Of a stretch of 64,000 nucleotides of DNA, positions 25,610-43,608 are shown in pieces. The translations under genes were made by a program, and so were the position numbers. The notes under the pieces were generated by a model. The model saw only the letters and a list, made by a program, of their open reading frames with translations, had not been told where the DNA came from and did not search any database. The first letter of the stretch is position 1. Each line of letters opens with the position of its first letter. The DNA is taken from positions 64,001 to 128,000 of the forward strand of contig JAXHLW010000013.1 of assembly GCA_034521815.1 (NCBI GenBank), given 5' to 3'. This DNA is from Trueperaceae bacterium (GTDB taxonomy: Bacteria; Deinococcota; Deinococci; Deinococcales; Trueperaceae).

Positions 25610-26422
25610 GTGTCCGGCGTGTTGGCCAAACGGATCATCGCTTGCCTGGACGTGCACGCCGGCCGCGTGACGCGTGGACAGCAGTTCGGTCGGGCCGAGG
25701 CCGGCGAGCTCGCCGACGTCGGCGATCCGGTCGCGCTGGCGCTGCGTTACGACGCGCAGGAAGCGGACGAGCTGGTGCTGTACGACATCACCGCCACGGC
25801 GGAAGGGCGCGACGCCATCCTGGACGTCGCGACCCGCGTGGCCGAGAGCTGCTTCATGCCGCTCACCATCGGTGGAGGCGTCCGAACCTTGAGCGACGTC
25901 CGAGCCCTGTTCCTGGCGGGGGCCGACAAGGTGTCGATCAACTCGGGCGCGGTGGCGGATCCGGAGCTGATCCGCCAGGCGTCGGAGCACTACGGCGCGC
26001 AGGCGGTCGTGCTGTCGATCGACGTCGCGAGGCGCGCGGCCGGTGGCGGCTGGGACGTGTTCGTGGCGGGCGGCCGAAGGTCCACCGGCTGGGACGCGGT
26101 CGAATGGGCCCAGCGGGGCCAGGCGCTGGGCGCGGGCGAGATCGTGCTGAACTCGATCGACGCCGACGGGATGAAGACCGGCTACGACCTAGGGGCCACG
26201 CGGGCCGTGGCTCGCGCGGTCGACGTGCCGGTGGTCGCGTCGGGCGGGGCCGGAAACGCCGATCATATGCGCGAGGTTCTCGAGCTCGGCGAGGCCGACG
26301 CGGCGCTGGCGGCGGGCATCTTCCACCGCGGCGAGACGACCGTCGGCGAGGTCAAGCGGCGCCTGGCGGCCGCCGGCGTGCCGGTGCGACTGGACGAGCT
26401 CGGTCCGGAGCCTGCGAGGTGA
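25610..26422 (+). CDS. hisF: Imidazole glycerol phosphate synthase cyclase subunit
   Basis: [33 protein letters not shown]; start may be 25619. Confidence 0.96.
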
Positions 26423-27600
26423 GCGGCGACCGGGACGACGCCGAGCTGCGCTTCGAGACGCTGGCCGTGCACGGCGGTCACGCGCCCGATCCCGCCAGCG
26501 GCGCGGTCACGCCGCCGATCCACCCCTCGACCACCTTCGTGCGTGATCCGGGCGGACAGCCCCGCGCCGAGTGGGTCTATACGCGGGCCGAGAACCCGAC
26601 GCGCCACGCCCTGGAGGCGGCGCTCACGGCGCTGCAGCCGGGCGCGGGCGCGTGCGCGGCGTTCGCGTCCGGCTCCGCCGCCGCCTCGGCCGTGCTCCGG
26701 ACGGTCGAGCCGGGTGGCCGCCTGCTGGTGCCGGACGACATGTACCACGGCGTTCGCACGCTGCTCGAAGGGGAGCGCGACCGCTGGGGAGCCGAGGTGG
26801 CGTACGTGGACATGGCCGATCCTGCGGCGCTGAGGCGGGCCCTGGAGCCGGGCGCCTCGCTGGTGTGGGTCGAGACGCCGTCGAATCCTCGCTTGAAGCT
26901 GACCGACCTCCGCGCGGCGGCCGACGCGGCGCACGCCGCGGGGGCGCGCCTGGCGGTGGACGCCACCTGGACGCCGCCGCCGCTGTCCGACCCGTTCGCG
27001 CTGGGGGCGGACGTGGTGATGCACTCGACCACGAAGTACCTGGCGGGGCACAGCGACGTGCTGGGCGGGGCGGTGCTGGCGCGCAGCGAGGACGATCCGA
27101 CGTTCGCGCGGGTCCGCTGGCTGCAGCGCCAGGAGGGGGCCGTGCCCTCGCCGTTCGACGCCTGGCTGACGCTGCGCGGCCTCCGGACGGTGGCGCTTCG
27201 CGTCCAGGCGGCGTGCACCGGTGCCGAGCGGCTCGCGGCGTTCCTGGAGCGGCATCCGGCCGTGATCGAGGTGCGCTACCCGGGGCTGCCGTCGCACCCG
27301 CAGCACCGGTTGGCTCGCGAGCAGATGACCCGCCCCGGCGCGATGCTGTCGTTCCGCGTCCGCGGCGGCGCCCAGGCGGCCGACCGCGTGGCGTCGGGCA
27401 CGCGGCTGTTCGCGCGCGCCACCAGCCTGGGCGGCGTCGAGAGCCTGATCGAGCACCGCGCCCCGGTCGAGGGCCCGGACACGCCCACGCCTCCCGACCT
27501 GCTACGCGTCTCGGTCGGTATCGAGCACGCGGACGACCTGATCGCCGATCTGGAGCGGGCGCTCGCCCGTGCGGACCTGGCCCGTGCGGACCTGGGTTAG
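26419..27600 (+). CDS. Cystathionine gamma-synthase/lyase family PLP enzyme (canonical type)
   Basis: [41 protein letters not shown] overlaps the hisF stop. Confidence 0.9.
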
Positions 27601-29454: not shown

Positions 29455-30618
29455 TCAGCGCACGAACAGCTCGCGCGGGAAGTCGGTGATGCGCTCGGCG
29501 CCCTCCGCGGTGACGCGGATGGTCTCGGTGCAGCCGATCCCGCCCTTGCCCGGCATCTGCACCCAGGGGAGCAGGTGGAAGGTCATGTTCTCCTGCAGGG
29601 GCCGGGTCTCGCCCGGTTTCATGCTGAGGATGTGGCCCTCGCCCCAGTCGGGCGGCACGGCGATCCCGACGGAGTAGGCGACACGGGACGCCTGGGTCCC
29701 GCCGAACCCGCTCTGCGCGATCACCTGGCGGGCGACGCGGTCGATCTCGCCGGCCGGCACGCCCGGGCGGATCGCGGCCAGCGCGGCGTCGAACGCCGCC
29801 TGGACGGCGTCGAAGGCGTGCACGGCGTCGTCGTCGGGTTCGCCGACCACCACGGTACGCATCATCGGAGCGTGGTAGCGGCTGCGACAGCCGGACACCT
29901 CCAGGAACACCGTGTCGTGCGCACGCACCACGCGCCCCGCCCAGGTGGCGTGACCGATCGCGCCGCGCTCGCCGCTGGCGACGAACGGCACGATCGACGG
30001 CCAGTGGCTGCCGGCGCGCACCATCGCGCCCATCAGCTCGGCGGCGATCTCGTTCTCGCTGACGCCGGCGCGCACGGCGTCGATCCCTGCGGCCATGCCC
30101 GCCTCGGTGGTTCGCGCAGCGGCGGCGATGCGGTCGATCTCGCGCTGCGTCTTGACCACGCGGCCTTCCTCGACCAGGCCGGAGGCGTCGACCCAGTCGA
30201 CCTCCGGGAGGAGCGAGAACAGCCGGTCCTGCTGCGCCGCCGTGAAGAACCAGCCGTCGCGCTCGAACCCGATCCGGCCGCGGTCGAAGCCCATGTGGGT
30301 CAGCGTGCCGACGAGGACCTCCATCGGGTCCTGGTCGTCGCGGTAGCCGACGTTGTGCTCCGGCTCGATCCAGCTGAGGGCGGTCATGCCGCTGATCTCG
30401 AGCAGGCGCGAGACGGTGGTCGGCTCGCCGATGAGCGACACGACCATGCCCTGCCACCAGTAGTGGCCCGGACTCTCGAACCCGGTGAGGTAGGTGACGT
30501 TCTCGGGCGTGGTGGTCAGCATCGCGACCAGGCCCCAGTCGTCCATGCGGGCGCGCAGCCCGTCGAGCCGGCTCTGGTACTCGTCCACGGGGAAGGGCAG
30601 CTGGTCGTGGTCTCGCAA
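29455..30618 (-). CDS. M24B-fold ectoine hydrolase-like protein (EutD/DoeA homologue, divergent)
   Basis: LPF..EY..RL N-terminus, FLEVSGC..RYHAP..RT, YSVGI..PPDWGE, MTFHLLP, FPRELFV; TTG start 30618 behind GGGAGG; adjacent to ehu/eut genes. Confidence 0.8.
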   Translation of the reverse strand: MRDHDQLPFPVDEYQSRLDGLRARMDDWGLVAMLTTTPENVTYLTGFESPGHYWWQGMVVSLIGEPTTVSRLLEISGMTALSWIEPEHNVGYRDDQDPMEVLVGTLTHMGFDRGRIGFERDGWFFTAAQQDRLFSLLPEVDWVDASGLVEEGRVVKTQREIDRIAAAARTTEAGMAAGIDAVRAGVSENEIAAELMGAMVRAGSHWPSIVPFVASGERGAIGHATWAGRVVRAHDTVFLEVSGCRSRYHAPMMRTVVVGEPDDDAVHAFDAVQAAFDAALAAIRPGVPAGEIDRVARQVIAQSGFGGTQASRVAYSVGIAVPPDWGEGHILSMKPGETRPLQENMTFHLLPWVQMPGKGGIGCTETIRVTAEGAERITDFPRELFVR

Positions 30619-30685
30619 GGCGACCTCCCGGTCGGCGCGTCCGCGAGGGACGAAAGCGGTGCCTGGCTCGGGTCCCCGGCGCCGC

Positions 30686-30714
30686 TTGACAACGGCGGGG
30701 CGAGCCCCTAGACT
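30686..30714 (+). promoter_or_regulatory. Sigma70-type promoter of the gntR-lyase-hom-aldh-ehu-eut operon
   Basis: TTGACA 30686-30691, 17-nt spacer, TAGACT 30709-30714. Confidence 0.8.
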
Positions 30715-30730
30715 TTCCAACGAAAGCGAC

Positions 30731-30740
30731 CTGTATACAA
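30731..30740. promoter_or_regulatory. Candidate GntR/FadR-family operator
   Basis: Palindrome cTGTATACAa just downstream of the -10 box, in the divergent intergenic region upstream of a GntR gene. Confidence 0.65.
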
Positions 30741-30871
30741 CCTGCGTACGAGTGGGATTCTACGGCCGGCCCGCCGCCGCGGTCAATCCTCACGAGGAGA
30801 CCGGCCCCAACGACCCGCCCTAGCCCGGACCCGCCCAGCGCGCGCCGAGCCGCGCCCGGAAAGGGGACACC

Positions 30872-31591
30872 GTGTCCGAAGGACGCGACATCCAGACCAT
30901 CTACGCCAAGCTGCGCGAGCGCATCTCGCTGCTCGACTACCCGCCCGGAACGGCGCTCAGCGAGAACCGGCTCGCGGCCGAGTTCGGCGTCAGCCGCACG
31001 CCCATCCGCCAGGTCCTGCACCGCCTCGAGTTCGACGGCCTCGTCACCATTCGCCGCGGGGTGGGCAGCCTGGTCACGTCGATCGACGTGCGTTACCTCA
31101 AGCAGGTCTACGACCTGCGCGTGAAGCTGATCGACGTCATCGCCGACCTCGACCCGGCCGCCATCGACCAGCGCGACATCGCTCGGATCGACGCGTTGCG
31201 CGACGAGGTGCGCGCGCTCCGCGGCCGCCGCGACCCTCGCACCCTCGCCCTGGCCTACCTCGAGTTCAACCGGGCGGTCACCCGGGCGATCGGCAACGAG
31301 CCGCTGCGCGAGATCGCCGACCGCCTCTACCACCAGACCTCGCGCCTGTGGATCGACGCCCTGCCGGCCCTGACCTGGGTGCACGAAGTCGACGCCGTCG
31401 AGCAGGAGATCGACGACACCGTGCGCGCCCTGCGCGCCGGCGACATGCGTGCGGTGGCCGAGGTCCGCAAGCGCCACATGATCGACTGCATCGCCCGCGT
31501 CGGCGCCTACCTCGGCCGGTTCGACGCCATCGCAGGCGCCCCTTACACGCACCGCACGCCCCTGTCCCCGTCCGAAGGAGGACCCTCATGA
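30872..31591 (+). CDS. GntR family transcriptional regulator (FadR/FCD type)
   Basis: wHTH: YPPGT.LSE..LA.EFGVSRTPIR..L..L..DGLV; helical C-terminal domain; no aminotransferase domain. Confidence 0.92.
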   Translation: MSEGRDIQTIYAKLRERISLLDYPPGTALSENRLAAEFGVSRTPIRQVLHRLEFDGLVTIRRGVGSLVTSIDVRYLKQVYDLRVKLIDVIADLDPAAIDQRDIARIDALRDEVRALRGRRDPRTLALAYLEFNRAVTRAIGNEPLREIADRLYHQTSRLWIDALPALTWVHEVDAVEQEIDDTVRALRAGDMRAVAEVRKRHMIDCIARVGAYLGRFDAIAGAPYTHRTPLSPSEGGPS

Positions 31592-32787
31592 ACGACAACG
31601 CCCCGAAGCAGAGCACCCTCACCGTCTGGGCCGGCGAGGAGGGCGTCCGCATCGCCGGCGCGACCCAGATCCCGGTCGTGCACAGCGTCTCGTTCGGCTA
31701 CGACGACCTCGACCACTGGCGCGACGTCGCCCTCGGCGACGCCGACGGCCACATCTACGGCCGCAACACCAACCCCACCACGGCGGTGTTCGAGGAGAAG
31801 ATCCGCATTCTCGAGGACGCCGAGGCGGCCACCAGCTTCGCGACCGGCATGGCCGCCATCTCGAACACCCTCTACACCCTGCTCGCCCCCGGCGATCGCG
31901 TGGTGACGGTCAAGGACACCTACGGCGGCACGAACCGCGTGTTCCTCGACTGGCTCCCCCGCATCGGCGTCGACGTCGCGATGTGCGACACGCACGACGA
32001 GGAGGCGATCCTGGCCGCCATCGACGAGGGGCTGGCGCTCCTCTACCTCGAGACGCCCACCAACCCGACCTGCAAGATCCTCGACATCGAGAAGCTCGCC
32101 GCGCGCGCCAAGGCGAAGGGCGCGACGGTGGTCGTGGACAACACCTTCGCCACGCCCATCAACCAGTCGCCGCTCGCGCTCGGCGCCGACCTGGTGGTGC
32201 ACAGCGCCACGAAGTACCTCGGCGGTCACGCCGACGCGCTGGGCGGCGCCCTGTGCGGCAGCGAGGAGCTGGTGCGGCGCGTGTTCGGCTACCGCGAGAT
32301 CAACGGCGCCACCCTCCATCCAGAGGCCGCCTACCTGCTGATTCGCGGCATGAAGACGCTCCAGCTGCGCATCGAGCGCCAGAACGCCAGCGCCGCGCGG
32401 ATCGCCTCGTTCCTCGAGGCGCATCCGGCCGTCGAGCGGGTGTTCCACCCCTCGCTCGCCAGCCATCCGAACCACGACGTCGCGGCCCGGCAGATGCGAG
32501 GCTTCGGGGGGATGCTGTCGTTCGCGCTGGTCGGCGGGTTCGACGCCGTGCGAACCTTCCTGCCCAAGCTCCGCTTCGCCCACCGCGCCGCCAACCTCGG
32601 CGCCGTCGAGACGGTCGTGGCGCCGCCCCGCACCGGCAGCCACGTCGAGCTGACCGAGGCCGAGCGGGCCGCGCTGGGCATCCCCGAGGCGCTGGTGCGC
32701 TACTCGACCGGGATCGAAGACGTCGGCGACCTCGAGGCCGACCTCGAGCAGGCGCTCGAGGGCGTGACTGCAGGACGCACGGAATGA
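31588..32787 (+). CDS. Cys/Met-metabolism PLP-dependent gamma-lyase family protein (non-canonical subgroup)
   Basis: IYGRNTNPT, GMAAIS, ETPTNP, DNTFATP, HSATKYLGGH, AANLGAVET; AGGAGG RBS, ATGA overlap with gntR. Confidence 0.9.
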   Translation: MNDNAPKQSTLTVWAGEEGVRIAGATQIPVVHSVSFGYDDLDHWRDVALGDADGHIYGRNTNPTTAVFEEKIRILEDAEAATSFATGMAAISNTLYTLLAPGDRVVTVKDTYGGTNRVFLDWLPRIGVDVAMCDTHDEEAILAAIDEGLALLYLETPTNPTCKILDIEKLAARAKAKGATVVVDNTFATPINQSPLALGADLVVHSATKYLGGHADALGGALCGSEELVRRVFGYREINGATLHPEAAYLLIRGMKTLQLRIERQNASAARIASFLEAHPAVERVFHPSLASHPNHDVAARQMRGFGGMLSFALVGGFDAVRTFLPKLRFAHRAANLGAVETVVAPPRTGSHVELTEAERAALGIPEALVRYSTGIEDVGDLEADLEQALEGVTAGRTE

Positions 32788-33827
32788 GCGCGCTCCGCCT
32801 CGCGCTGATCGGCTTCGGGACCGTCGGCCAGGGGCTCGCGCGGATCCTGGCCGACCGCGGCGCGGACCTGCGCGAGCGCTACGGCCTGGACGTCCGCATC
32901 ACCGCCGTCGCCGACCTGCGGTGCGGCAGCGTGCACGCCGCCGACGGCCTGGACCCGGCGCGGCTGCTGGCGGCCGCGGGGGCGGACGGCACGTTCGATG
33001 CGGTCGACGCCGAGGATCGCGGCTGGGACGCCCTGACCACCATCCGCGAGGCGCAGGCCGACGTGGTCGCCGAGCTGGCGTTCACCGACCTGGCCACCGG
33101 CGAGCCGGCGCTGACGCACGTCCGCACCGCGCTGGAGCACGGCCGCCACGTGATCACCACCAACAAGGGACCGGTCGCGCTGGCGTGGCCGGAGCTGGCG
33201 GCGACCGCACGCCGGCGCGGCGTGCGCCTCGAAGCCGAGGGGACCGTGATGAGCGGCACGCCCGCCCTGCACCTCGGGGCCGAGCTGCTCGCCGGCGCCG
33301 GGGTGACGCGGATCGAAGGGATCCTCAACGGCACCACCAACTACGTCCTCACCCGCATGGAGGCCGGCGCCGACTTCGGCGAGGCGCTCGCCGAGGCGCA
33401 GGCCGAGGGCTACGCCGAGGCGGACCCCAGCGGCGACGTCGAGGGGATCGACGCCGCCGGCAAGGTGGTGATCCTGGCGAACCGGGTGATGGGCGCCGAG
33501 CTGACGATGGCCGACGTCGCCCGCGAGGGCATCGCCGGTCTGACCCGCGCGGACGTCGAGGCGGCCGCCGCCGCCGGCGAGCGCTGGAAGCTGATCGGGC
33601 GCGTCGAGCGGGACGGCCAGACGGTCCGCGCCTCCGTAGCGCCGCGGCGCGTTCCGGCCACGCACCCGCTGGCTTCGGTGGGCGGCGCGACCAACGCGGT
33701 GACGTACACCACCGAGCTGCTGGGCGACGTGACCCTGATCGGTCCCGGTGCCGGCAAGCTCGCCACCGGCTACGCCCTGATCGCCGACCTGTTGGCGATC
33801 CATCGCGCCACGGGAGGTGCGGCGTGA
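32784..33827 (+). CDS. hom: Homoserine dehydrogenase, short form without ACT domain
   Basis: IGFGTVG, HVITTNKGP, EGTVMSGTP, GILNGTTNY, GYAEADPSGDVEG.D, GPGAG. Confidence 0.93.
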   Translation: MSALRLALIGFGTVGQGLARILADRGADLRERYGLDVRITAVADLRCGSVHAADGLDPARLLAAAGADGTFDAVDAEDRGWDALTTIREAQADVVAELAFTDLATGEPALTHVRTALEHGRHVITTNKGPVALAWPELAATARRRGVRLEAEGTVMSGTPALHLGAELLAGAGVTRIEGILNGTTNYVLTRMEAGADFGEALAEAQAEGYAEADPSGDVEGIDAAGKVVILANRVMGAELTMADVAREGIAGLTRADVEAAAAAGERWKLIGRVERDGQTVRASVAPRRVPATHPLASVGGATNAVTYTTELLGDVTLIGPGAGKLATGYALIADLLAIHRATGGAA

Positions 33828-35248
33828 AGATGCTGCTCGAAGGACGCTGGGTCGATCGCGAGGCCCGCACCGAGATCCTCGACCCCGAAAGCGGCGCCAC
33901 CGTCGATACCGTGCCGCGCGCGGACGCCGCCGACGCCGAGCGTGCGCTGGCGCACGCCGAGAAGGCCGCCGAGACCGCGCGGCGCTGGCCGATCCACGAG
34001 CGCATGCGTGTGCTGAGCGGCGCCGCACGGCTGCTGGACGAGCGCCGCGAGACGTTCGCCGAACGGATCGCCCGCGAAGGCATCAAGACCATCCGCGAGG
34101 CGAGACGCGAGGCGGCCCGCTGCGCCGACACGCTCCGGCTGGGCGCCGAGGAGGCGCGCCGGCTGCACGGCGAGACGGTGCCGTTCGACCAGGCGCCCGG
34201 CTCGGAGCGGCGGGTCGGCGCCTGGCGACCCGAGCCGGTCGGCATCGTGGTGGCGATCACGCCGTACAACGACCCGCTGAACCTGGTGGCGCACAAGCTC
34301 GCCCCGGCGCTCGCCGCCGGCAACGCGGTGATCCTCAAGCCGGACAGCCGCACCCCCCTGTCCGCCCTGGCGCTGGTGGAGGCGCTGCTCGAGGCGGGAC
34401 TCCCGGAGGAGATCGTGCAGGTGCTGACCGGACCCGGCAGCGAGGTCGGCGCCGCGCTGGTCCGCGACCCGCGTCCGCGGACGGTGTCGTTCACCGGCGG
34501 CAAGGTCACCGGCGAGCGGATCGCCCGCGAGGCCGGCCTCAAGAAGCTGTCGATGGAGCTCGGCTCGAACGCCCCCGCCATCGTGCTGCCCGACGCCGAC
34601 CTGGACGCCGCCGTCGCGGCCTGCGTCGCCGGCGCCTACGCCGCGGCGGGGCAGAACTGTCTGCACGTGCAGCGCCTGCTGCTGCACCGCGACATCGCCG
34701 ACGCCTTCACCGAGGCGTTCGTGGCCGGTGCCCGCGGCGTCTCCACCGGCCCCAAGCTCGACGAGGCGACGGACATGGGACCGATGATCGACGAGCAAGC
34801 CGCGCTGCGGGTGGAATCGATGGTCCAGGACGCCCAGGCCGCGGGGGCGACGGTGCTGACCGGCGGGGGGCGCAGCGGTACCGTTCTGGCGCCGACGGTG
34901 GTCGCCGGCGTGCCGCTTGGTCACCCGCTGGACGTGGACGAGGTCTACGGACCTGTTACGGTCGTACGAACGTTCGAGGATTCGTCGGAAGCGGTCGCAC
35001 GCGCGAACGCGGTCGACTTCGGTCTTCAGGCGGGTCTGTTCACCCGCGACCTCGACGCGGCCTTCCACATCGCGGACGGCTTGCGCTACGGCGGGGTCGT
35101 GGTCAACGATAGCAGCGACTATCGGATCGACGCGATGCCGTTCGGCGGCGTGAAGGGCTCCGGCCTGGGACGTGAAGGCGTCCGCTACGCCATGGAGGCG
35201 ATGACCGAGCCCAAGCTCGTCTGTTTCGCGTTGTCGTCACGCAGCTAG
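33824..35248 (+). CDS. NAD(P)-dependent aldehyde dehydrogenase (candidate non-phosphorylating aspartate-semialdehyde dehydrogenase)
   Basis: ITPYNDP, SFTGG, MELGSN, catalytic [24 protein letters not shown]. Confidence 0.92.
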
Positions 35249-35318
35249 CACCCCGTCAAGGCCTGCCTACGCGGCCGTCCGCGGCCGACGTGGCGCGCGG
35301 CAGGAAACGAGGAGGAAC

Positions 35319-36143
35319 GTGACCCAACCGACCGTGGAACCCGAAGGAGGCGCGTCGCCCGCCGACGCCTCGTCCCCTCCGATGATCCGCTTCGAGAAGG
35401 TCCGCAAGGCCTTCGGCGATCTCGTCGTGCTGGACGACCTCGACTTCGAGGCCGCCGAGAACGAGAAGGTCGCCATCATCGGTCCGAGCGGGTCGGGCAA
35501 GACCACCATCCTCCGCGTGCTGATGACGTTGGTCAAGCCGGACGGCGGCAAGGTCTTCGTCGACGACCGCCCGCTGTGGCACCAGGAAGTGAACGGCCGC
35601 GTCGTGCCGGCCGGCGAGAAGCACCTGCACGAGGTGCGCGGCGACATCGGGATGGTGTTCCAGCACTTCAACCTGTTCCCGAACATGAGCGTGCTGCGCA
35701 ACGTCACCGAGGCGCCCATCCACGTGCGTGGCATCGCGCGCCAGGAGGCCGAGGAGCGCGGCATGGAGCTGCTCGACATGGTCGGCCTGTCCGACAAGGC
35801 CAAGGCCTTCCCGGTCCAGCTTTCCGGCGGTCAGAAGCAGCGCGTCGCCATCGCCCGCGCCCTTGCGATGGAGCCGAAGGTGATGCTGTTCGACGAGGTC
35901 ACCAGCGCGCTGGACCCCGAGCTCGTCGGCGAGGTGCTGGCGATCCTGCGCAAGCTCGCCGAAGAGACGCAGATGACGATGTTGATCGTCACGCACGAGA
36001 TGGGCTTCGCCCGAGACGTCGCCGACCGGGTGATCTTCTTCGACGCCGGCCAGGTCGCCGAAGAGGGACCGCCCGAGAGGATCTTCAGCAAGCCGGAGAA
36101 CCCGCGGACCCAGGAGTTCCTGAGCGCCGTGCTGACGCACTGA
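35319..36143 (+). CDS. ehuA: Ectoine/hydroxyectoine ABC transporter ATP-binding protein
   Basis: Polar amino acid ABC ATPase ([26 protein letters not shown]) with the EhuA-like LWH...VPA.EKHL insert; gene context. Confidence 0.85.
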
Positions 36144-36145
36144 CG

Positions 36146-36205
36146 ACGAACCACGCACCGACGCACCACGCACCGACGAATCACGAACCGACGGACCACG
36201 CAGCG
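36146..36205 (+). repeat. 4 x 15-bp degenerate tandem repeat (ACGAACCACGCACCG)
   Basis: Units start at 36146, 36161, 36176 and 36191, directly after the ehuA stop. Confidence 0.85.
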
Positions 36206-36394
36206 AAGACGTATCGAAGACGTTCCGAAGACGGAAGGAGGCGTCGATGAACCCGTACCGAGATCGGCCCGACCGGCCTACTCCCGTGCACGGGACCGGC
36301 TTGGCCCCACCGACGGGGTCGCCGGTCGAACATGGCGCCGCGGCATTCGGCCGCGCTGCGCAACACCGATAGACCTTTGGAGGTAACGAACGTG

Positions 36395-37252
36395 ATGAAG
36401 AGACTTTCGACCCTATTGATCGCCGCCCTGACCCTCGGCCTGGTGACCGGCTTCGGACTCGCCCAGCGCTCCTGGAGCGATATCCAGGAGAGCGGCACGG
36501 TCCGCGTCGTGACCGCGAACGAGATCCCGTACGGCTGGATCGACGACGAGGGCGTCGCCCACGGCATCGCTCCCGAGGTCGCCATCGCCGTCCTCGAGTC
36601 GATGGGCATCACCGACATCGAGTGGACCGTGACCGAGTTCGGTCAGCTGATCCCGAGCCTGATCGCGGGCCGCGCCGACATGACCGCCGCCAGCATGGCG
36701 ATCCTTCCCGACCGCTGCCAGCAGGTCGACTACGCCCGCCCGAACTCCTCGTACGGCGAGGGCTTCCTGGTCGCCGCGGGCAACCCGCAGGACATCCACA
36801 GCTACCAGGACTTCGTGGACAACCCCGACCTGACCATGGGCATCGTCTCCGGCGCCGACCAGATCGATTTCGCGCAGGCGATGGGCATTCCGCAGAACCA
36901 GATCTCGTTCATCAACGCGAACGCGGACGCTCCCTCGGCCGTCTCTTCGGGCCGCATCGACGCCTACGCCGGGACCGGTCTGACCGTCGCGAACCTCGCC
37001 GACTCCTCCGACCGCGTCGAGATCGCCGATCCGTTCGAGGATCCCGTCGTCGACGGTGAGCCGGTCCGCAGCTGGGGCAGCTTCAACTTCCACGCCGACG
37101 CCGACGACTTCAGCGAAGCGTTCGACGCCGCGCTCGGCGAGTTCCAGCAGACCGACGAGTACCGCGACATCCTTCTCAGCCACGGCCTGAGCGACGGCGA
37201 CATCGACGCCGCCCTCGCCGCCAGCACCGAGGACCTCTGCAGCGCAGAGTGA
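36395..37252 (+). CDS. ehuB: Ectoine/hydroxyectoine ABC transporter substrate-binding protein
   Basis: Signal peptide; ANEIPYG, G.APE, TEFGQLIPSL.AGR.D, ILPDRCQQV, C-terminal LC; start could be GTG 36392. Confidence 0.85.
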   Translation: MKRLSTLLIAALTLGLVTGFGLAQRSWSDIQESGTVRVVTANEIPYGWIDDEGVAHGIAPEVAIAVLESMGITDIEWTVTEFGQLIPSLIAGRADMTAASMAILPDRCQQVDYARPNSSYGEGFLVAAGNPQDIHSYQDFVDNPDLTMGIVSGADQIDFAQAMGIPQNQISFINANADAPSAVSSGRIDAYAGTGLTVANLADSSDRVEIADPFEDPVVDGEPVRSWGSFNFHADADDFSEAFDAALGEFQQTDEYRDILLSHGLSDGDIDAALAASTEDLCSAE

Positions 37253-37261
37253 CCTGGTGAC

Positions 37262-37300
37262 GGCAGGCCCGCTTCGGCGGGCCTGCCCTTCCTCTCTTTT
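37262..37300 (+). terminator. Stem-loop/terminator between ehuB and ehuC
   Basis: GGCAGGCCCGC-TTCG-GCGGGCCTGCC followed by a pyrimidine tract. Confidence 0.75.
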
Positions 37301-37354
37301 CCACGCTTTCTTGCACGTTCCGCACCGTATTTCGCTTCACCACCGGGAGGATCG

Positions 37355-38026
37355 ATGGAAGACCTACGGCAACTCCTCGTCCCGCTGCTGAAGGGCACCA
37401 CCGTCACCCTGCAGCTGGCGCTGGCGTCGACGTTGTTCGGCGGCATCCTGTCGTTCGCCGCCGGGATCGGCAAGCTGTCGGGCAATCCGCTGGTGCGCTG
37501 GCTCTCCGTCGGCTACATCGAGATCTTCCGCGGCACCTCGCTCCTGGTGCAGATGTTCTGGCTCTACTTCGCGCTTCCGCTGATCGGGATCCGGCTCCCC
37601 CCCGTCACCGCCGGCATCCTCGCACTGTCGCTCAACATCGGCGCCTACGGCGCCGAGGTCGTGCGCGGCGCGATCCAGGCCGTGCCGAGGGAGCAGTACG
37701 AGGCCGCCATCGCGGTGAACTTCACCCGCCGCTTCACGCTCTGGCGGGTCGTGCTGCCGCAGGCGCTGGTCGAGATGATGCCGCCGTTCGGGAACCTGGT
37801 GGTCCAGAACCTGAAGGACACCGCCCTGGTCTCGCTCATCTCGCTCAGCGACCTCACCTTTAGGGCGCAGAACTATCGGAACCTCACGTACGAGACCGTC
37901 CCCGTCTTCACCGCCACGTTGTTCATCTACTTCTTCCTGGCGCTGGCGTTCATGGCGGTCATGCGTCTGCTGGAGCGCTGGATCGCGGTCCGCGTCGGCG
38001 TCGCGCAGGGGAGGGCGAGGGCCTGA
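37355..38026 (+). CDS. ehuC: Ectoine/hydroxyectoine ABC transporter permease
   Basis: YIEIFRGTSLLVQ.FWLYF.LP, GAYGAEVVRGAI, MMPPFGN. Confidence 0.87.
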   Translation: MEDLRQLLVPLLKGTTVTLQLALASTLFGGILSFAAGIGKLSGNPLVRWLSVGYIEIFRGTSLLVQMFWLYFALPLIGIRLPPVTAGILALSLNIGAYGAEVVRGAIQAVPREQYEAAIAVNFTRRFTLWRVVLPQALVEMMPPFGNLVVQNLKDTALVSLISLSDLTFRAQNYRNLTYETVPVFTATLFIYFFLALAFMAVMRLLERWIAVRVGVAQGRARA

Positions 38027-38718
38027 TGCTGTTCGGCGTCGAATGGGACACCAGTAGCAACCTCGCCTTCGCGGTGTCGATCTTCCCGATCCTCCTCCGG
38101 GGCCTGTGGGTCACGGTGCAGGCCACCGTGCTCGGAATGGCGATCGCCCTGGTGCTGGGCCTGATCCTGGCGCTGCTCAGGATGGTGCCCCTGAAGATCG
38201 TGTCGTGGCCGACCGCCTTCTTCCTCGAGTTCGTGCGGGACACGCCGCTGCTGGTACAGCTCTACTTCCTGTTCTTCGTGCTGCCCGACTTCGGGATCAT
38301 CCTCCCGGCGTTCCTCACCGGCGCCATCGCGCTCGGGATCCAGTACAGCGGCTACACCGCCGAGGTGTACCGCGCCGGGATCGAGGCGGTGCCGCGAGGC
38401 CAGTGGGAGGCCGCCACGGCGCTGAACATGCCGGCCACCCTCACCTACCGGCACGTCATCGTCCCGCAGGCGATCCCGCGGATCGTGCCCGCGCTGGGCA
38501 ACTACCTGGTGTCGATGCTCAAGGACACCGCGATCCTCTCCGCCGTCACGGTCCTGGAGATGCTGAACGTGGCGATGCTGCTCGGGGACCGGACCTTCAA
38601 GTACTTCGTCCCCCTGACCATGGTCGGCGGCCTGTTCCTGGTGGTCACGCTGGCGGCGTCGTCGCTGGTTCGCTTCTTGGACAACCGCCTTCCGAAGTCG
38701 GGGATCCCGCTCCGGTGA
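38026..38718 (+). CDS. ehuD: Ectoine/hydroxyectoine ABC transporter permease
   Basis: EFVRDTPLLVQLYFLFFVLP, Y.AEVYRAGI, PQAIP...PALGNYL. Confidence 0.87.
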   Translation: MLFGVEWDTSSNLAFAVSIFPILLRGLWVTVQATVLGMAIALVLGLILALLRMVPLKIVSWPTAFFLEFVRDTPLLVQLYFLFFVLPDFGIILPAFLTGAIALGIQYSGYTAEVYRAGIEAVPRGQWEAATALNMPATLTYRHVIVPQAIPRIVPALGNYLVSMLKDTAILSAVTVLEMLNVAMLLGDRTFKYFVPLTMVGGLFLVVTLAASSLVRFLDNRLPKSGIPLR

Positions 38719-39774
38719 CGCCGTCGCGACCCGACCGGGTCGCGGTGACGGTGCGGGAGGTGTGGCGCGCCCGCGCCCGCATCCACGGGCTGGTGCGCCG
38801 CACGCCGTTGCTGAGCGATCCGGTGCTGGGTCCGGACATGGGGTCCGGACATGGATCCGGACGTGGGGCCGGGCGGCCCGGGCGCGTCCCACGGCGTGTG
38901 GATCAAGGACGAGACGGCGCAGCCGACCGGCTCGTTCAAGGTGCGTGGCGCCGCCAACGCCCTGCTGTCGCTCGATCCGGAGCGGCGCGCGGCCGGCGTC
39001 GTGGCCGTCTCGACGGGCAACCACGGGCGGGCCGTGGCGTACGTCGCACGCCGGCTGGGAGCGCGCGCCGACGTGTTCGTCTCGGAGCGGGTGCCGCCAG
39101 GCAAGCTGGACGCGCTGCGGGCCGAAGGCGCCACCGTCCACGTCGGTGGCGACTCGCAGGACGCGGCCGAGGAGCACGCTCGCGCCTTCGCCCGCGAGCG
39201 CGGCGCGACGCTGATCCCGCCGTTCGACCACCCAGGCGTGATCGCCGGGCAGGGCACCCTGGGCCTGGAGCTGCTCGACGAGCTTCCGGAGCTGGCCACC
39301 CTGATCGTGCCGGTCTCCGGCGGCGGGCTGATCGCCGGGACGGCGCTGGCCGTCCGTTCCGCCGCGCCGGACGTGCGAATCGTGGGCGTGTCGATGGAGG
39401 AGGGCGCGATCATGCACGCCAGCCTGCAGGCCGGGCGGCCGATGACCATGCCCGAGGCGGACACCCTGGCGGACAGTCTTCAGGGAGGCCTGGGCGCCGA
39501 CAACGCCTACACCTTCACGATGGTGCGCGAGCTGGTCGACGAGATCGTCCTGGTGCCCGAAACGGCGCTGGCCGCCGCGATGCGCCACGGCTTCCGGGTG
39601 CACCGCCGCGTGTTGGAGGGCGGCGGCGCGGCCGCCATCGCCGCGCTGGCGAGCGGCGCGGTAGGGGTGCGCGGCCCGACGGTGGCCGTGGCCTCCGGCG
39701 GCAACGTGGACGAAGCGACGTTCGCGCGCGTGCTAGCGGAAGGAGGCGACGATGAGCCCCACCGACAGACGTGA
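38715..39774 (+). CDS. eutB: Hydroxyectoine utilisation dehydratase (threonine dehydratase family), +1 frameshift near 38841
   Basis: RRTPL in one frame; K.E..QPTGSFKVRGA, STGNHGRA, LADSL.GG, SGGNVD in the next frame; lies between ehuD and eutC. Confidence 0.82.
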
Positions 39775-40735
39775 CCTGGACGGCGCGCCCCGCGTGGTGA
39801 GCGAGACCGAGATCCGGCGTCACGCCGTGCTCGGCGAGGACGCGCTCGCCGCCGTCGCGGACGGCTTCGTGCGGCTCGCCCGTGGCGAGGTGCGGCAGCC
39901 GCCCGTCCTGTCGCTGGACCTGCCCGAGGTGCACGGCGAGATCGACGTCAAGACCGCCTGGGTGCGCGGCTGGGACGGATTCTGCGTCAAGCTCTCGACC
40001 GGCTTCTTCGACAACCCCGCCCGCGGCCTGCCCTCGGCGTCGGGGATGATGATCGTCTTGGACGGGGCCACCGGGCGGCCCCGGGCGGTGCTGCTGGACG
40101 GAGGCGTTCTCACCGAGCTGCGGACCGCGGCGGCGGGCGCGCTGGCGGCACGGACCCTGGCCCGGCCGGATGCGTCGCGTGCCGCGATCCTCGGCGCCGG
40201 CTCGCAGGCGCGCTGGCAGCTGCGCGCCCTCGCGACGGTCCGCGAGCTGCAGGCGGTGCGGGTCTGGGCCCGCCGGCCCGAGGCGGCGGACGCCTACGCG
40301 CGCGAGATGGCGGACGCGTGCGGCGTCGAGGTGCGCGTCGCGGCGACGCCCGCCGCCGCCGTCGCCGACGCCGACGTGGTGGTCACCACCACGCCCGCCC
40401 GCGAGCCGCTGCTCGAGGACGGCGACCTTCCGGCCGGCGTGCACGTCACCGCCATGGGCGCAGACGGCGCCGGCAAGCGCGAGCTGGCGCCCGAGACGCT
40501 GGAGCGCGCCGACGTGCTGGTCGTCGACGACCTGGCGCAGAGCCGACGCATCGGCGAGCTCCAGGGCGTCCGGCAGGACCGCGCCTCCGGCGCCGTCGAG
40601 CTGGGTGCGGTGCTCGCCGGTGACGCGCCGGGACGCCGTGACGCGGCGCAGCGCACCGTCTGCGACCTCACCGGGACCGGCGTGCAGGACACGGCGATCG
40701 CGCGCTGGCTGCTGCGGCGTCTCGAGGCCGGTTGA
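39752..40735 (+). CDS. eutC: Ectoine utilisation cyclodeaminase (ornithine cyclodeaminase/mu-crystallin family)
   Basis: GEIDVKTA, GFFDNP..GLPS, LRTAAAG, GAGSQA, MGAD, CDLTGTGVQDTAIA. Confidence 0.9.
   Translation: MSPTDRRDLDGAPRVVSETEIRRHAVLGEDALAAVADGFVRLARGEVRQPPVLSLDLPEVHGEIDVKTAWVRGWDGFCVKLSTGFFDNPARGLPSASGMMIVLDGATGRPRAVLLDGGVLTELRTAAAGALAARTLARPDASRAAILGAGSQARWQLRALATVRELQAVRVWARRPEAADAYAREMADACGVEVRVAATPAAAVADADVVVTTTPAREPLLEDGDLPAGVHVTAMGADGAGKRELAPETLERADVLVVDDLAQSRRIGELQGVRQDRASGAVELGAVLAGDAPGRRDAAQRTVCDLTGTGVQDTAIARWLLRRLEAG

Positions 40736-43531: not shown

Positions 43532-43608
<77 letters not shown>

Follow-up and report, generated by a model that had tools for sequence, protein, structure and literature searches.

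A conserved variant of the ectoine catabolism cluster in Deinococcota with a candidate homoserine route in place of the transaminase

Background

Ectoine is a major osmolyte and nutrient pool of saline and marine habitats, and the canonical set of genes for its uptake and breakdown comprises EutD/DoeA, EutE/DoeB, Atf/DoeD, Ssd/DoeC, EutABC, an Ehu or Ueh transporter and an EnuR/AsnC regulator. The present work concerns a locus at positions 29455-40735 of a stretch of 64,000 nucleotides (“the window”) from a Trueperaceae bacterium of the phylum Deinococcota (contig JAXHLW010000013.1, positions 64,001 to 128,000), in which genes of this kind are combined with a gene for a pyridoxal 5'-phosphate (PLP) enzyme of the Cys/Met-metabolism family, called the lyase below, and one for homoserine dehydrogenase (Hom). 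The locus shares with the canonical clusters of S. meliloti, R. pomeroyi and H. elongata the transporter EhuABCD, an M24 hydrolase, homologs of EutB and EutC, an aldehyde dehydrogenase (ALDH) able to play the part of DoeC and, presumably, the end product aspartate. It differs from them in that it lacks EutE/DoeB, DoeD, EutA, EnuR and AsnC, has a GntR/FCD regulator instead, and contains the inserted Cys/Met PLP enzyme and Hom.

Clusters that resemble the locus more closely have recently been reported. “Putative ectoine catabolism clusters” of Bacillota and Actinomycetota, which their authors call tentative, consist of pucR-eutBCD-atf together with abgB-thrA-adh, and eutE is absent from them (PMC13188858, April 2026). 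The PLP gene is there named atf and treated as an aminotransferase; that paper puts forward neither a lyase nor a homoserine route, and it leaves Deinococcota unmentioned (the string “deinococc” has 0 occurrences). Judging by the gene order in L143 and L003, this “atf” is apparently the cystathionine gamma-synthase (CGS)-family gene to which the lyase corresponds: the Priestia pBMV_1 and Halobacillus loci show the published order, with a CGS-family gene in the “atf” position. The published clusters and the locus described here have in common the hydrolase, EutC, the PLP enzyme, Hom, ALDH and EutB, as well as the absence of EutE; the locus differs from them in having neither the M20 gene “abgB” nor PucR in the cluster, in carrying genes for GntR and for an Ehu transporter within the operon, and in belonging to Deinococcota.

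Two further systems provide precedents for the portion of the locus that involves homoserine. Genes for homoserine catabolism in Rhizobium leguminosarum were reportedly described by Vanderlinde in 2014. The homoserine on which the Hom-ALDH pair of that organism acts comes from the plant, whereas here it would be made in the cell by the lyase. The canavanine gamma-lyase pathway of Pseudomonas canavaninivorans and Rhizobiales (PMC9533460) is built from the same module, namely a PLP lyase, Hom, ALDH, an ATP-binding cassette (ABC) importer and a regulator; it leads from canavanine to homoserine through the gamma-lyase, to aspartate semialdehyde through a Hom that uses only nicotinamide adenine dinucleotide (NAD), and to aspartate through ALDH, and it has been reconstituted experimentally. 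The likeness drawn here is one of module logic, and the chemistry differs, since the leaving group is there hydroxyguanidine, released via oxygen, while here it would be ammonia or an amide, released via nitrogen.

The analysis reported below leads to the conclusion that the locus is a variant of known ectoine catabolism that is both real and conserved. A preliminary description of the locus had put it forward as a candidate new pathway that runs through a gamma-lyase and homoserine to aspartate. The novelty has to be narrowed, because the Gram-positive type of the cluster is already in print (PMC13188858), but a lyase and homoserine route for the breakdown of ectoine is proposed in no paper that was found. 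Such a route is supported by gene context, although the version of it in which acetamide is released is the less likely one. Surveys of ectoine consumers that are keyed to EutD plus EutE, or to DoeD, would overlook every genome that carries this variant.

Organization of the locus

Profile scans of the open reading frames (ORFs) of the window recovered all eleven genes of the preliminary description where it had placed them, and they bore out its account of an ectoine-type uptake and catabolic cluster without EutE/DoeB and DoeD. A hydrolase gene on the minus strand is divergent from an operon on the plus strand that has the order gntR-lyase-hom-aldh-ehuABCD-eutB-eutC. The hydrolase (29455..30720, minus strand) is a DoeA_2-like ectoine hydrolase of the M24 “pita-bread” type with a creatinase-type N-domain (PF00557, PF01321). 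It is nearer to DoeA_2 than to EutD, scoring 378 bits against the NCBIfam model NF038259 (DoeA_2, cut-off 575) and 242 bits against TIGR02993 (cut-off 613), and it aligns over its full length with the structure of H. elongata DoeA, 6TWK, at 199 bits, while prolidases reach at most 108 bits. Its translation may in fact begin some 35 codons into the ORF, and its orthologs, at 49-85% identity, adjoin the lyase in the loci of 11 relatives.

The operon opens with a GntR regulator that has an FCD ligand domain (30872..31591; PF00392 71 bits, PF07729 35 bits), which is followed by the lyase (31588..32787; PF01053 418 bits), Hom (32784..33827; NF004912 425 bits, cut-off 373) and ALDH (33824..35248; PF00171 496 bits, with no NCBIfam equivalog cut-off reached). 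As had been claimed for them, these first four genes are joined by 4-bp stop/start overlaps, which direct reading of the sequence gives as ATGA for gntR/lyase, ATGA for lyase/hom and GTGA for hom/aldh. All four subunits of the importer exceed their equivalog cut-offs: the ATPase EhuA (35319..36143; TIGR03005, 399 against 345), the substrate-binding protein EhuB (36332..37252; TIGR02995, 247 against 191), which also aligns over its full length with S. meliloti EhuB, 2Q88, at 127 bits, and the permeases EhuC (37355..38026; TIGR03004, 277 against 197) and EhuD (38026..38718; TIGR03003, 309 against 205). The last two genes encode EutB, a threonine-dehydratase-like PLP enzyme (38745..39774; NF005680, 372 against a cut-off of 413 for the long ORF at 38851-39774), and EutC, an imine-reductase-like member of the ornithine cyclodeaminase / mu-crystallin family (39752..40735; PF02423 226 bits; NF006141, 393 against 408; TIGR02992, 340 against 472). 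Both proteins also match the BhcB and BhcD models.

Family scans detected no deacetylase EutE/DoeB, class-III transaminase Atf/DoeD, EnuR or AsnC in the cluster, and the intergenic gaps are too small to accommodate them.

The lyase, homoserine dehydrogenase and aldehyde dehydrogenase

The lyase is of the PRK08249 type, labelled only “cystathionine gamma-synthase family protein”, and it exceeds the cut-off of the corresponding model (NF006097, 651 against 600). In a quick maximum-likelihood tree this type forms one clade apart from the other Cys/Met enzymes, with an SH-aLRT (Shimodaira-Hasegawa-like approximate likelihood-ratio test) support of 100, and a family-specific segment, [AG]P[PA]x[TV][TG]SHVE, replaces the HPxxMTH of other members. 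True orthologs from different phyla are 56-73% identical, and the best relative in the PDB is a methionine gamma-lyase (325 bits). Since PLP enzymes of the Cys/Met family require a free alpha-amino group on the substrate, that of the lyase would be either L-2,4-diaminobutyrate (DABA) or N-gamma-acetyl-DABA.

The cluster Hom shares 50% identity, and the cluster ALDH 51%, with its counterpart in a Hom-ALDH pair carried by a plasmid of Rhizobium leguminosarum (locus L265); this pair has the same gene order and overlapping ends and adjoins genes for homoserine kinase, an Lrp/AsnC regulator and an ABC transporter. This homology lends support to a sequence of reactions from homoserine via aspartate semialdehyde to aspartate, as in the canavanine gamma-lyase pathway. 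The N-terminus of the cluster Hom, GFGTVG...AVAD, has an acidic residue after beta-2, as in the Hom of Bacillota, and under the general Rossmann rule an acidic residue there goes with a preference for NAD, which the cluster Hom would thus be expected to share. A rhizobial Hom encoded near a homoserine-catabolism cluster, which appears to be that of L265, has been described as belonging to a family strongly biased towards the oxidation of homoserine to aspartate semialdehyde (PMC10228743). The cluster Hom probably works in this oxidative, catabolic direction, and ALDH is proposed to be an aspartate-semialdehyde dehydrogenase with a role like that of DoeC. The genome contains a second, housekeeping-like hom whose product is 38% identical to the cluster Hom.

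Recurrence of the cluster

The neighbourhood of the lyase was surveyed in the window's order, in genome contigs from many phyla and in metagenomes, a locus being informative if at least 2.5 kb of sequence was available to one side of the lyase and a gene being near if it lay within 9 kb. For the order, 201 genomes were searched and 20 lyase loci were fetched with wide flanks; the survey of genome contigs returned 80 loci, 22 with true orthologs; and the metagenome scan used a second family-specific motif, the first DNA motif having matched the window's lineage only, and gave 80 loci, 69 with an ortholog and 11 without.

A lyase ortholog occurs in 32 of the 201 genomes of the order (23 of 53 in family f1, 8 of 19 in f5, and none in f2, f3 and f4). 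Beside it, a DoeA-like hydrolase and ehu genes are found in 12 of the 20 loci, and the full gene set of the window in 7, so the arrangement is not due to chance. The full set has the gene order of the window in L130 and L132-L136 (L136 is cut by a contig end after ehuD) and is rearranged in L131, while in L123, L128, L129, L137 and L139 hom and aldh are missing from a set that otherwise comprises hydrolase, lyase, ehu genes and eutB. The hom and aldh genes follow the lyase in 8 of the 20 loci, 7 of which are among the 12 with the hydrolase; L140 has the order pucR, lyase, S41 peptidase, hom, aldh. In L139 the operon gntR-lyase-ehu-eutB-eutC ends in a hydrolase that exceeds the EutD equivalog cut-off (726 against 613), and this bona fide EutD ties the operon type to ectoine.

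Over the three surveys, a DoeA-like hydrolase is near the lyase in 31 of 87 informative loci, from five named phyla, to which plasmids of Klebsiella and Priestia have to be added. The hydrolase was found in 12 of 20 informative loci of the order, none of the 12 having a deacetylase; in 8 of 20 from genome contigs, of which 6 have a deacetylase and 6 have hom and aldh; and in 11 of 47 from metagenomes, where a deacetylase was found in 3 of the 11 and hom with aldh in 3. Adjacency of lyase and hydrolase extends over Deinococcota, Bacillota, Actinomycetota, Pseudomonadota (Klebsiella and Pseudothioglobus) and metagenomes. The assignment of the PLP enzyme to an ectoine pathway, which had been made from the window alone, is thus strengthened by its conserved partnership with ectoine hydrolases. 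The exclusion of transaminase and deacetylase by the lyase, which had been named as a point to check, largely holds for the former, as just 7 of 125 loci have a class-III aminotransferase near the lyase, but fails for the latter: of the 19 loci outside the order that include the hydrolase, 9 have a deacetylase linked to the lyase, and so have both ectoine-gene plasmids. Given a conserved hydrolase partner and no accompanying transaminase, the lyase most likely does the job of DoeD after ring opening, and the lyase, Hom and ALDH together probably take the transaminase's place.

The composition of the clusters varies between lineages. In six Bacillota loci the genes run hydrolase-(eutC)-lyase-[M20 amidohydrolase]-hom-aldh. 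Five of the six have the M20 gene in this place, between lyase and hom; in L010 it is on the other strand, some 5 kb upstream. Plasmid pBMV_1 of Priestia megaterium ATCC 14581 carries PucR, eutB, pdxS, M24, a cyclodeaminase, the CGS-family gene, M20, hom and aldh. Wherever hom and aldh are present they stand directly 3' of the lyase, or of the lyase and the M20 gene. An Acidimicrobiales locus (L013) contains a PhyH dioxygenase, a DoeA-like hydrolase, a bona fide DoeB (TIGR02994, 436 against 403) and the lyase, and on the Pseudothioglobus chromosome (L012), where the order is lyase-hydrolase-asnC, a bona fide EutE is encoded about 700 kb away (556 against 403). Plasmid NZ_CP013713.1 of Klebsiella pneumoniae (L144) carries ehuABCD, a MocR-type regulator and an operon that, in RefSeq names, reads doeA-doeB-CGS-family gene, and the cluster on it includes no doeD, doeC, hom or aldh.

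Several other features of the distribution were noted. A minimal unit of asnC, DoeA-like hydrolase and lyase is seen in marine loci of the SUP05 type (L012, L149, L186 and L218). In an Anaerolineales locus (L017, 5790-9001) the lyase is flanked on one side by the gene for an AsnC regulator and on the other by a threonine-synthase-like (ThrC-like) gene. The Klebsiella ectoine cluster is located on plasmids of the IncFIB/IncHI1B type and is a mobile form of the lyase-based variant; 43 Klebsiella records match the lyase, and 18 of the 25 among the matches listed are from Klebsiella, at 58% identity.

The proposed route and its alternatives

The reading that we propose, and to which we give an even chance, is that the locus is a substrate-inducible cluster for the import and catabolism of ectoine and hydroxyectoine in which a route from DABA to homoserine replaces the transaminase. 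EhuABCD would import ectoine (and hydroxyectoine), and the DoeA_2-like M24 hydrolase would open the ring to give N-acetyl-DABA, from which an amidohydrolase encoded outside the cluster would remove the acetyl group. The PRK08249-type enzyme, as the replacement of DoeD, would then catalyse the gamma-elimination of ammonia from DABA and the addition of water to yield L-homoserine, which the translationally coupled Hom would oxidise to aspartate semialdehyde and ALDH to aspartate. EutB, as a dehydratase, and EutC, as an imine reductase, would strip the hydroxyl group from the amino acid derived from hydroxyectoine, a role that follows published proposals (PMC13188858, introduction; PMC5924519) and the matches to BhcB and BhcD. 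What is observed in this scheme is the genes, their families, their coupling and their joint recurrence; every enzymatic step, above all the substrate and product of the lyase, is predicted from these.

The likeliest substrate of the lyase would be free DABA. In lineages outside the window's family a deacetylase is usually either linked to the lyase or encoded elsewhere in the genome, and the lyases are 58-68% identical across the lineages, so that a single substrate for all of them is the economical assumption and DABA is favoured. The ThrC-like neighbour of the lyase in L017 was counted for homoserine as the product. Extended to the whole family, the proposal is that PRK08249-type enzymes constitute an undescribed L-2,4-diaminobutyrate gamma-lyase/hydratase with homoserine as its product (the substrate in the window's family being possibly N-gamma-acetyl-DABA) and that together with Hom and ALDH they provide a transaminase-independent ectoine route, a claim that we put forward tentatively, at slightly worse than even chances. 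If it is true, such a route spans Deinococcota, Bacillota, Actinomycetota, marine SUP05-type Gammaproteobacteria and Klebsiella plasmids, and a function can be given to a large and highly conserved family whose present label specifies none. The formation of homoserine from DABA would also be a new reaction for Cys/Met PLP enzymes, in which a gamma-amino group is removed without an amino acceptor.

In the assembly (2.63 Mb in 13 contigs, ~71% G+C, 83.5% complete) canonical EutE was not found, the best match to TIGR02994 being an AstE/AspA-family gene on contig C8, beside GNAT and GGDEF-EAL genes, that scores 91 bits against a cut-off of 403. The M20-family model DoeB_2 (NF038260) likewise has no match in the genome above its cut-off of 550; the best, at 298 bits, is an M20 gene at C1:495-1880 that adjoins an AEC-type transporter and feoB. 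Neither of these two candidates has ectoine genes nearby. PF04952 has no match in the genome, nor have eutA (TIGR02990) and EctC (PF06339), for which the control genomes are equally without a match. Of the seven class-III aminotransferases in the genome, the six that were scanned comprise one like gamma-aminobutyrate (GABA) transaminase (503.5 against a cut-off of 506.65), one PRK08117, one LysJ/ArgD, two omega-transaminases and HemL, and none of the six reaches the cut-off for DABA transaminase.

A number of these observations, together with some from the surveys, weigh against the proposed route. The M20 enzyme at C1:495-1880 is its best candidate for the missing deacetylase, but this is a guess, in view of a score far below the cut-off and a distribution like that of a widespread housekeeping gene, carried regardless of the cluster in 143 of the 201 genomes of the order and also in families without the lyase. 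The 12 clusters of the order that include a hydrolase are all without a deacetylase, as are the flanks of L123, L129, L130, L137 and L139, and EutE exceeds its cut-off in none of the 201 genomes. The 83.5% completeness of the assembly and the classification of six out of seven class-III aminotransferases count on this side as well. In 7 of the 20 loci of the order the lyase lies among unrelated genes (in L124-L127 these are VTC, DUF4956, CotH, YceD and fatty-acid synthesis genes), and in five genomes with such a stand-alone lyase that were examined no ortholog of the hydrolase was found (best identity 29-33%, with one genome giving no match). In the tree such lyases are nested among those that belong to clusters, from which it follows that the activity is not confined to ectoine catabolism. 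We know of no description of ammonia loss from DABA by a Cys/Met-family enzyme. Finally, hom and aldh are absent from 5 of the 12 hydrolase-linked clusters of the relatives, from the Klebsiella plasmid and from the Pseudothioglobus locus, and this fits the formation of 2-oxobutyrate equally well.

The missing deacetylase would be accounted for by the chemistry originally suggested for the locus, in which ring opening by the hydrolase produces N-gamma-acetyl-DABA and the lyase converts this compound itself to acetamide and homoserine, with the result that deacetylation is unneeded. Besides the absence of a deacetylase from the window and from its relatives' clusters, this version can draw on the known mechanism of PLP enzymes, which demands a free alpha-amino group on the substrates of the cluster's two PLP enzymes, and on an FmdA_AmdA-family gene in 13 of 13 cluster-bearing genomes, although this gene says little because 109 of the 201 genomes of the order have it. 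H. elongata DoeA is reported to give both isomers of N-acetyl-DABA, of which DoeB leaves the gamma isomer unused (PMC5924519), but the major product of M. alcaliphilum DoeA is N-alpha-acetyl-DABA (PMC7192451, the methylotroph work from which the NCBIfam DoeA_2 and DoeB_2 models apparently derive). The surveys point the other way as well, in that orthologous lyases adjoin DoeB or an M20 amidohydrolase in other lineages, the Pseudothioglobus genome has EutE elsewhere, and the partner hydrolase in L139 is a bona fide EutD. To our knowledge there is also no precedent for an amide nitrogen as the leaving group. We regard the acetamide version as unlikely, and of the original route it is the portion from homoserine to aspartate, with its rhizobial homologs and its canavanine precedent, that retains its plausibility.

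A second alternative concerns the product. The lyase might run an ordinary gamma-elimination of DABA, or of another gamma-substituted amino acid, to 2-oxobutyrate and ammonia, with Hom and ALDH serving some other purpose such as the scavenging of homoserine. This would agree with the clusters that lack hom and aldh and with methionine gamma-lyases as the nearest solved relatives. It would not explain why the two genes are always directly downstream where they are present, or why they are joined to the lyase by 4-bp overlaps in the window, and the canavanine gamma-lyase demonstrates that the family can release homoserine (PMC9533460); we therefore consider it improbable.

It is more doubtful still that the lyase is a passenger from sulfur-amino-acid metabolism while DABA is handled by a promiscuous class-III aminotransferase of the GABA-transaminase-like kind and ALDH fills the role of DoeC. 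The seven class-III aminotransferases, one of them just below the GABA-transaminase cut-off, and the stand-alone lyases in genomes without the hydrolase are compatible with this, but adjacency to the hydrolase recurs in the phyla listed above and in metagenomes, three other Cys/Met-family paralogs are available in the genome for sulfur metabolism, and Hom would be left without a role. A Cys/Met-family PLP paralog, at ~26458-27555 on the plus strand within the ORF 24805-27600 and just upstream of hisIE, was noted in the window itself; it is 35% identical to the cluster lyase by tblastn and is presumably a methionine or cysteine biosynthesis gene. That the compound handled is a related cyclic amidine or amino-acid derivative and not ectoine is very improbable, for although the hydrolase, EutB and EutC are all under their equivalog cut-offs, and one aromatic-cage position of EhuB, Phe in 2Q88, aligns with Ala in the EhuB of the window, all four Ehu subunits exceed theirs and homologous clusters hold a bona fide EutD (L139) or doeA and doeB as named in RefSeq.

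The frame of eutB, regulation and other features of the window

One correction to the preliminary description concerns the eutB gene, which is divided in the window between two frames. The break occurs at a 13-bp tandem repeat (GGGTCCGGACATG twice, 38828-38853) that holds a run of four G; residues 3-32 of the EutB of a relative align with 38742-38831 in one frame and residues 39-327 with 38896-39759 in another. Contigs from two public sequencing runs span the break (X1 record 5 and X2 record 9) and are shorter by one base, at 38840 or 38844, a difference that would bring both parts of eutB into one frame. These contigs represent related strains, with 7-8 other differences, and runs X4 and X6 have no contig over 38818-38891. 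The break thus reflects either an assembly error in the homopolymer or a mutation at the level of the strain.

The GntR/FCD regulator holds the position occupied by EnuR/AsnC in canonical clusters. In the divergent promoter region between the hydrolase and gntR there is a candidate operator for it, the palindrome cTGTATACAA at 30731..30740, which is the sole TGTATACA in the 64-kb window. The form TTGTATACAA, which we take to be that of a GntR/FadR-type operator, was found in the hydrolase-gntR intergenic region of all 10 of the 10 relatives examined. The GntR/FCD protein is predicted on this basis to bind the palindrome at 30731-30740 and, through TGTATACA, would repress both divergent promoters.

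Within the operon, a G+C-rich hairpin followed by a T-rich run, which resembles a terminator or attenuator, was read by eye right after ehuB (37262..37302, plus strand). The 188-bp spacer between ehuA and ehuB (36144-36331) contains imperfect short repeats of the types CACGCACCGACG and GAAGACG, and also an ATG at 36247 that has a good Shine-Dalgarno sequence but is out of frame with ehuB. The locus is flanked upstream by hisIE and glpX and downstream by one ORF without an assigned family and one FxLYD-domain ORF. A gene for tRNA-Ala (CGC) lies at 43533-43608 on the minus strand, about 2.8 kb downstream of eutC and beyond two ORFs without informative families. In the segment 14001-16000 the G+C content falls to 0.60, compared with about 0.71 elsewhere in the window, and this segment is possibly acquired DNA or a region of RNA genes.

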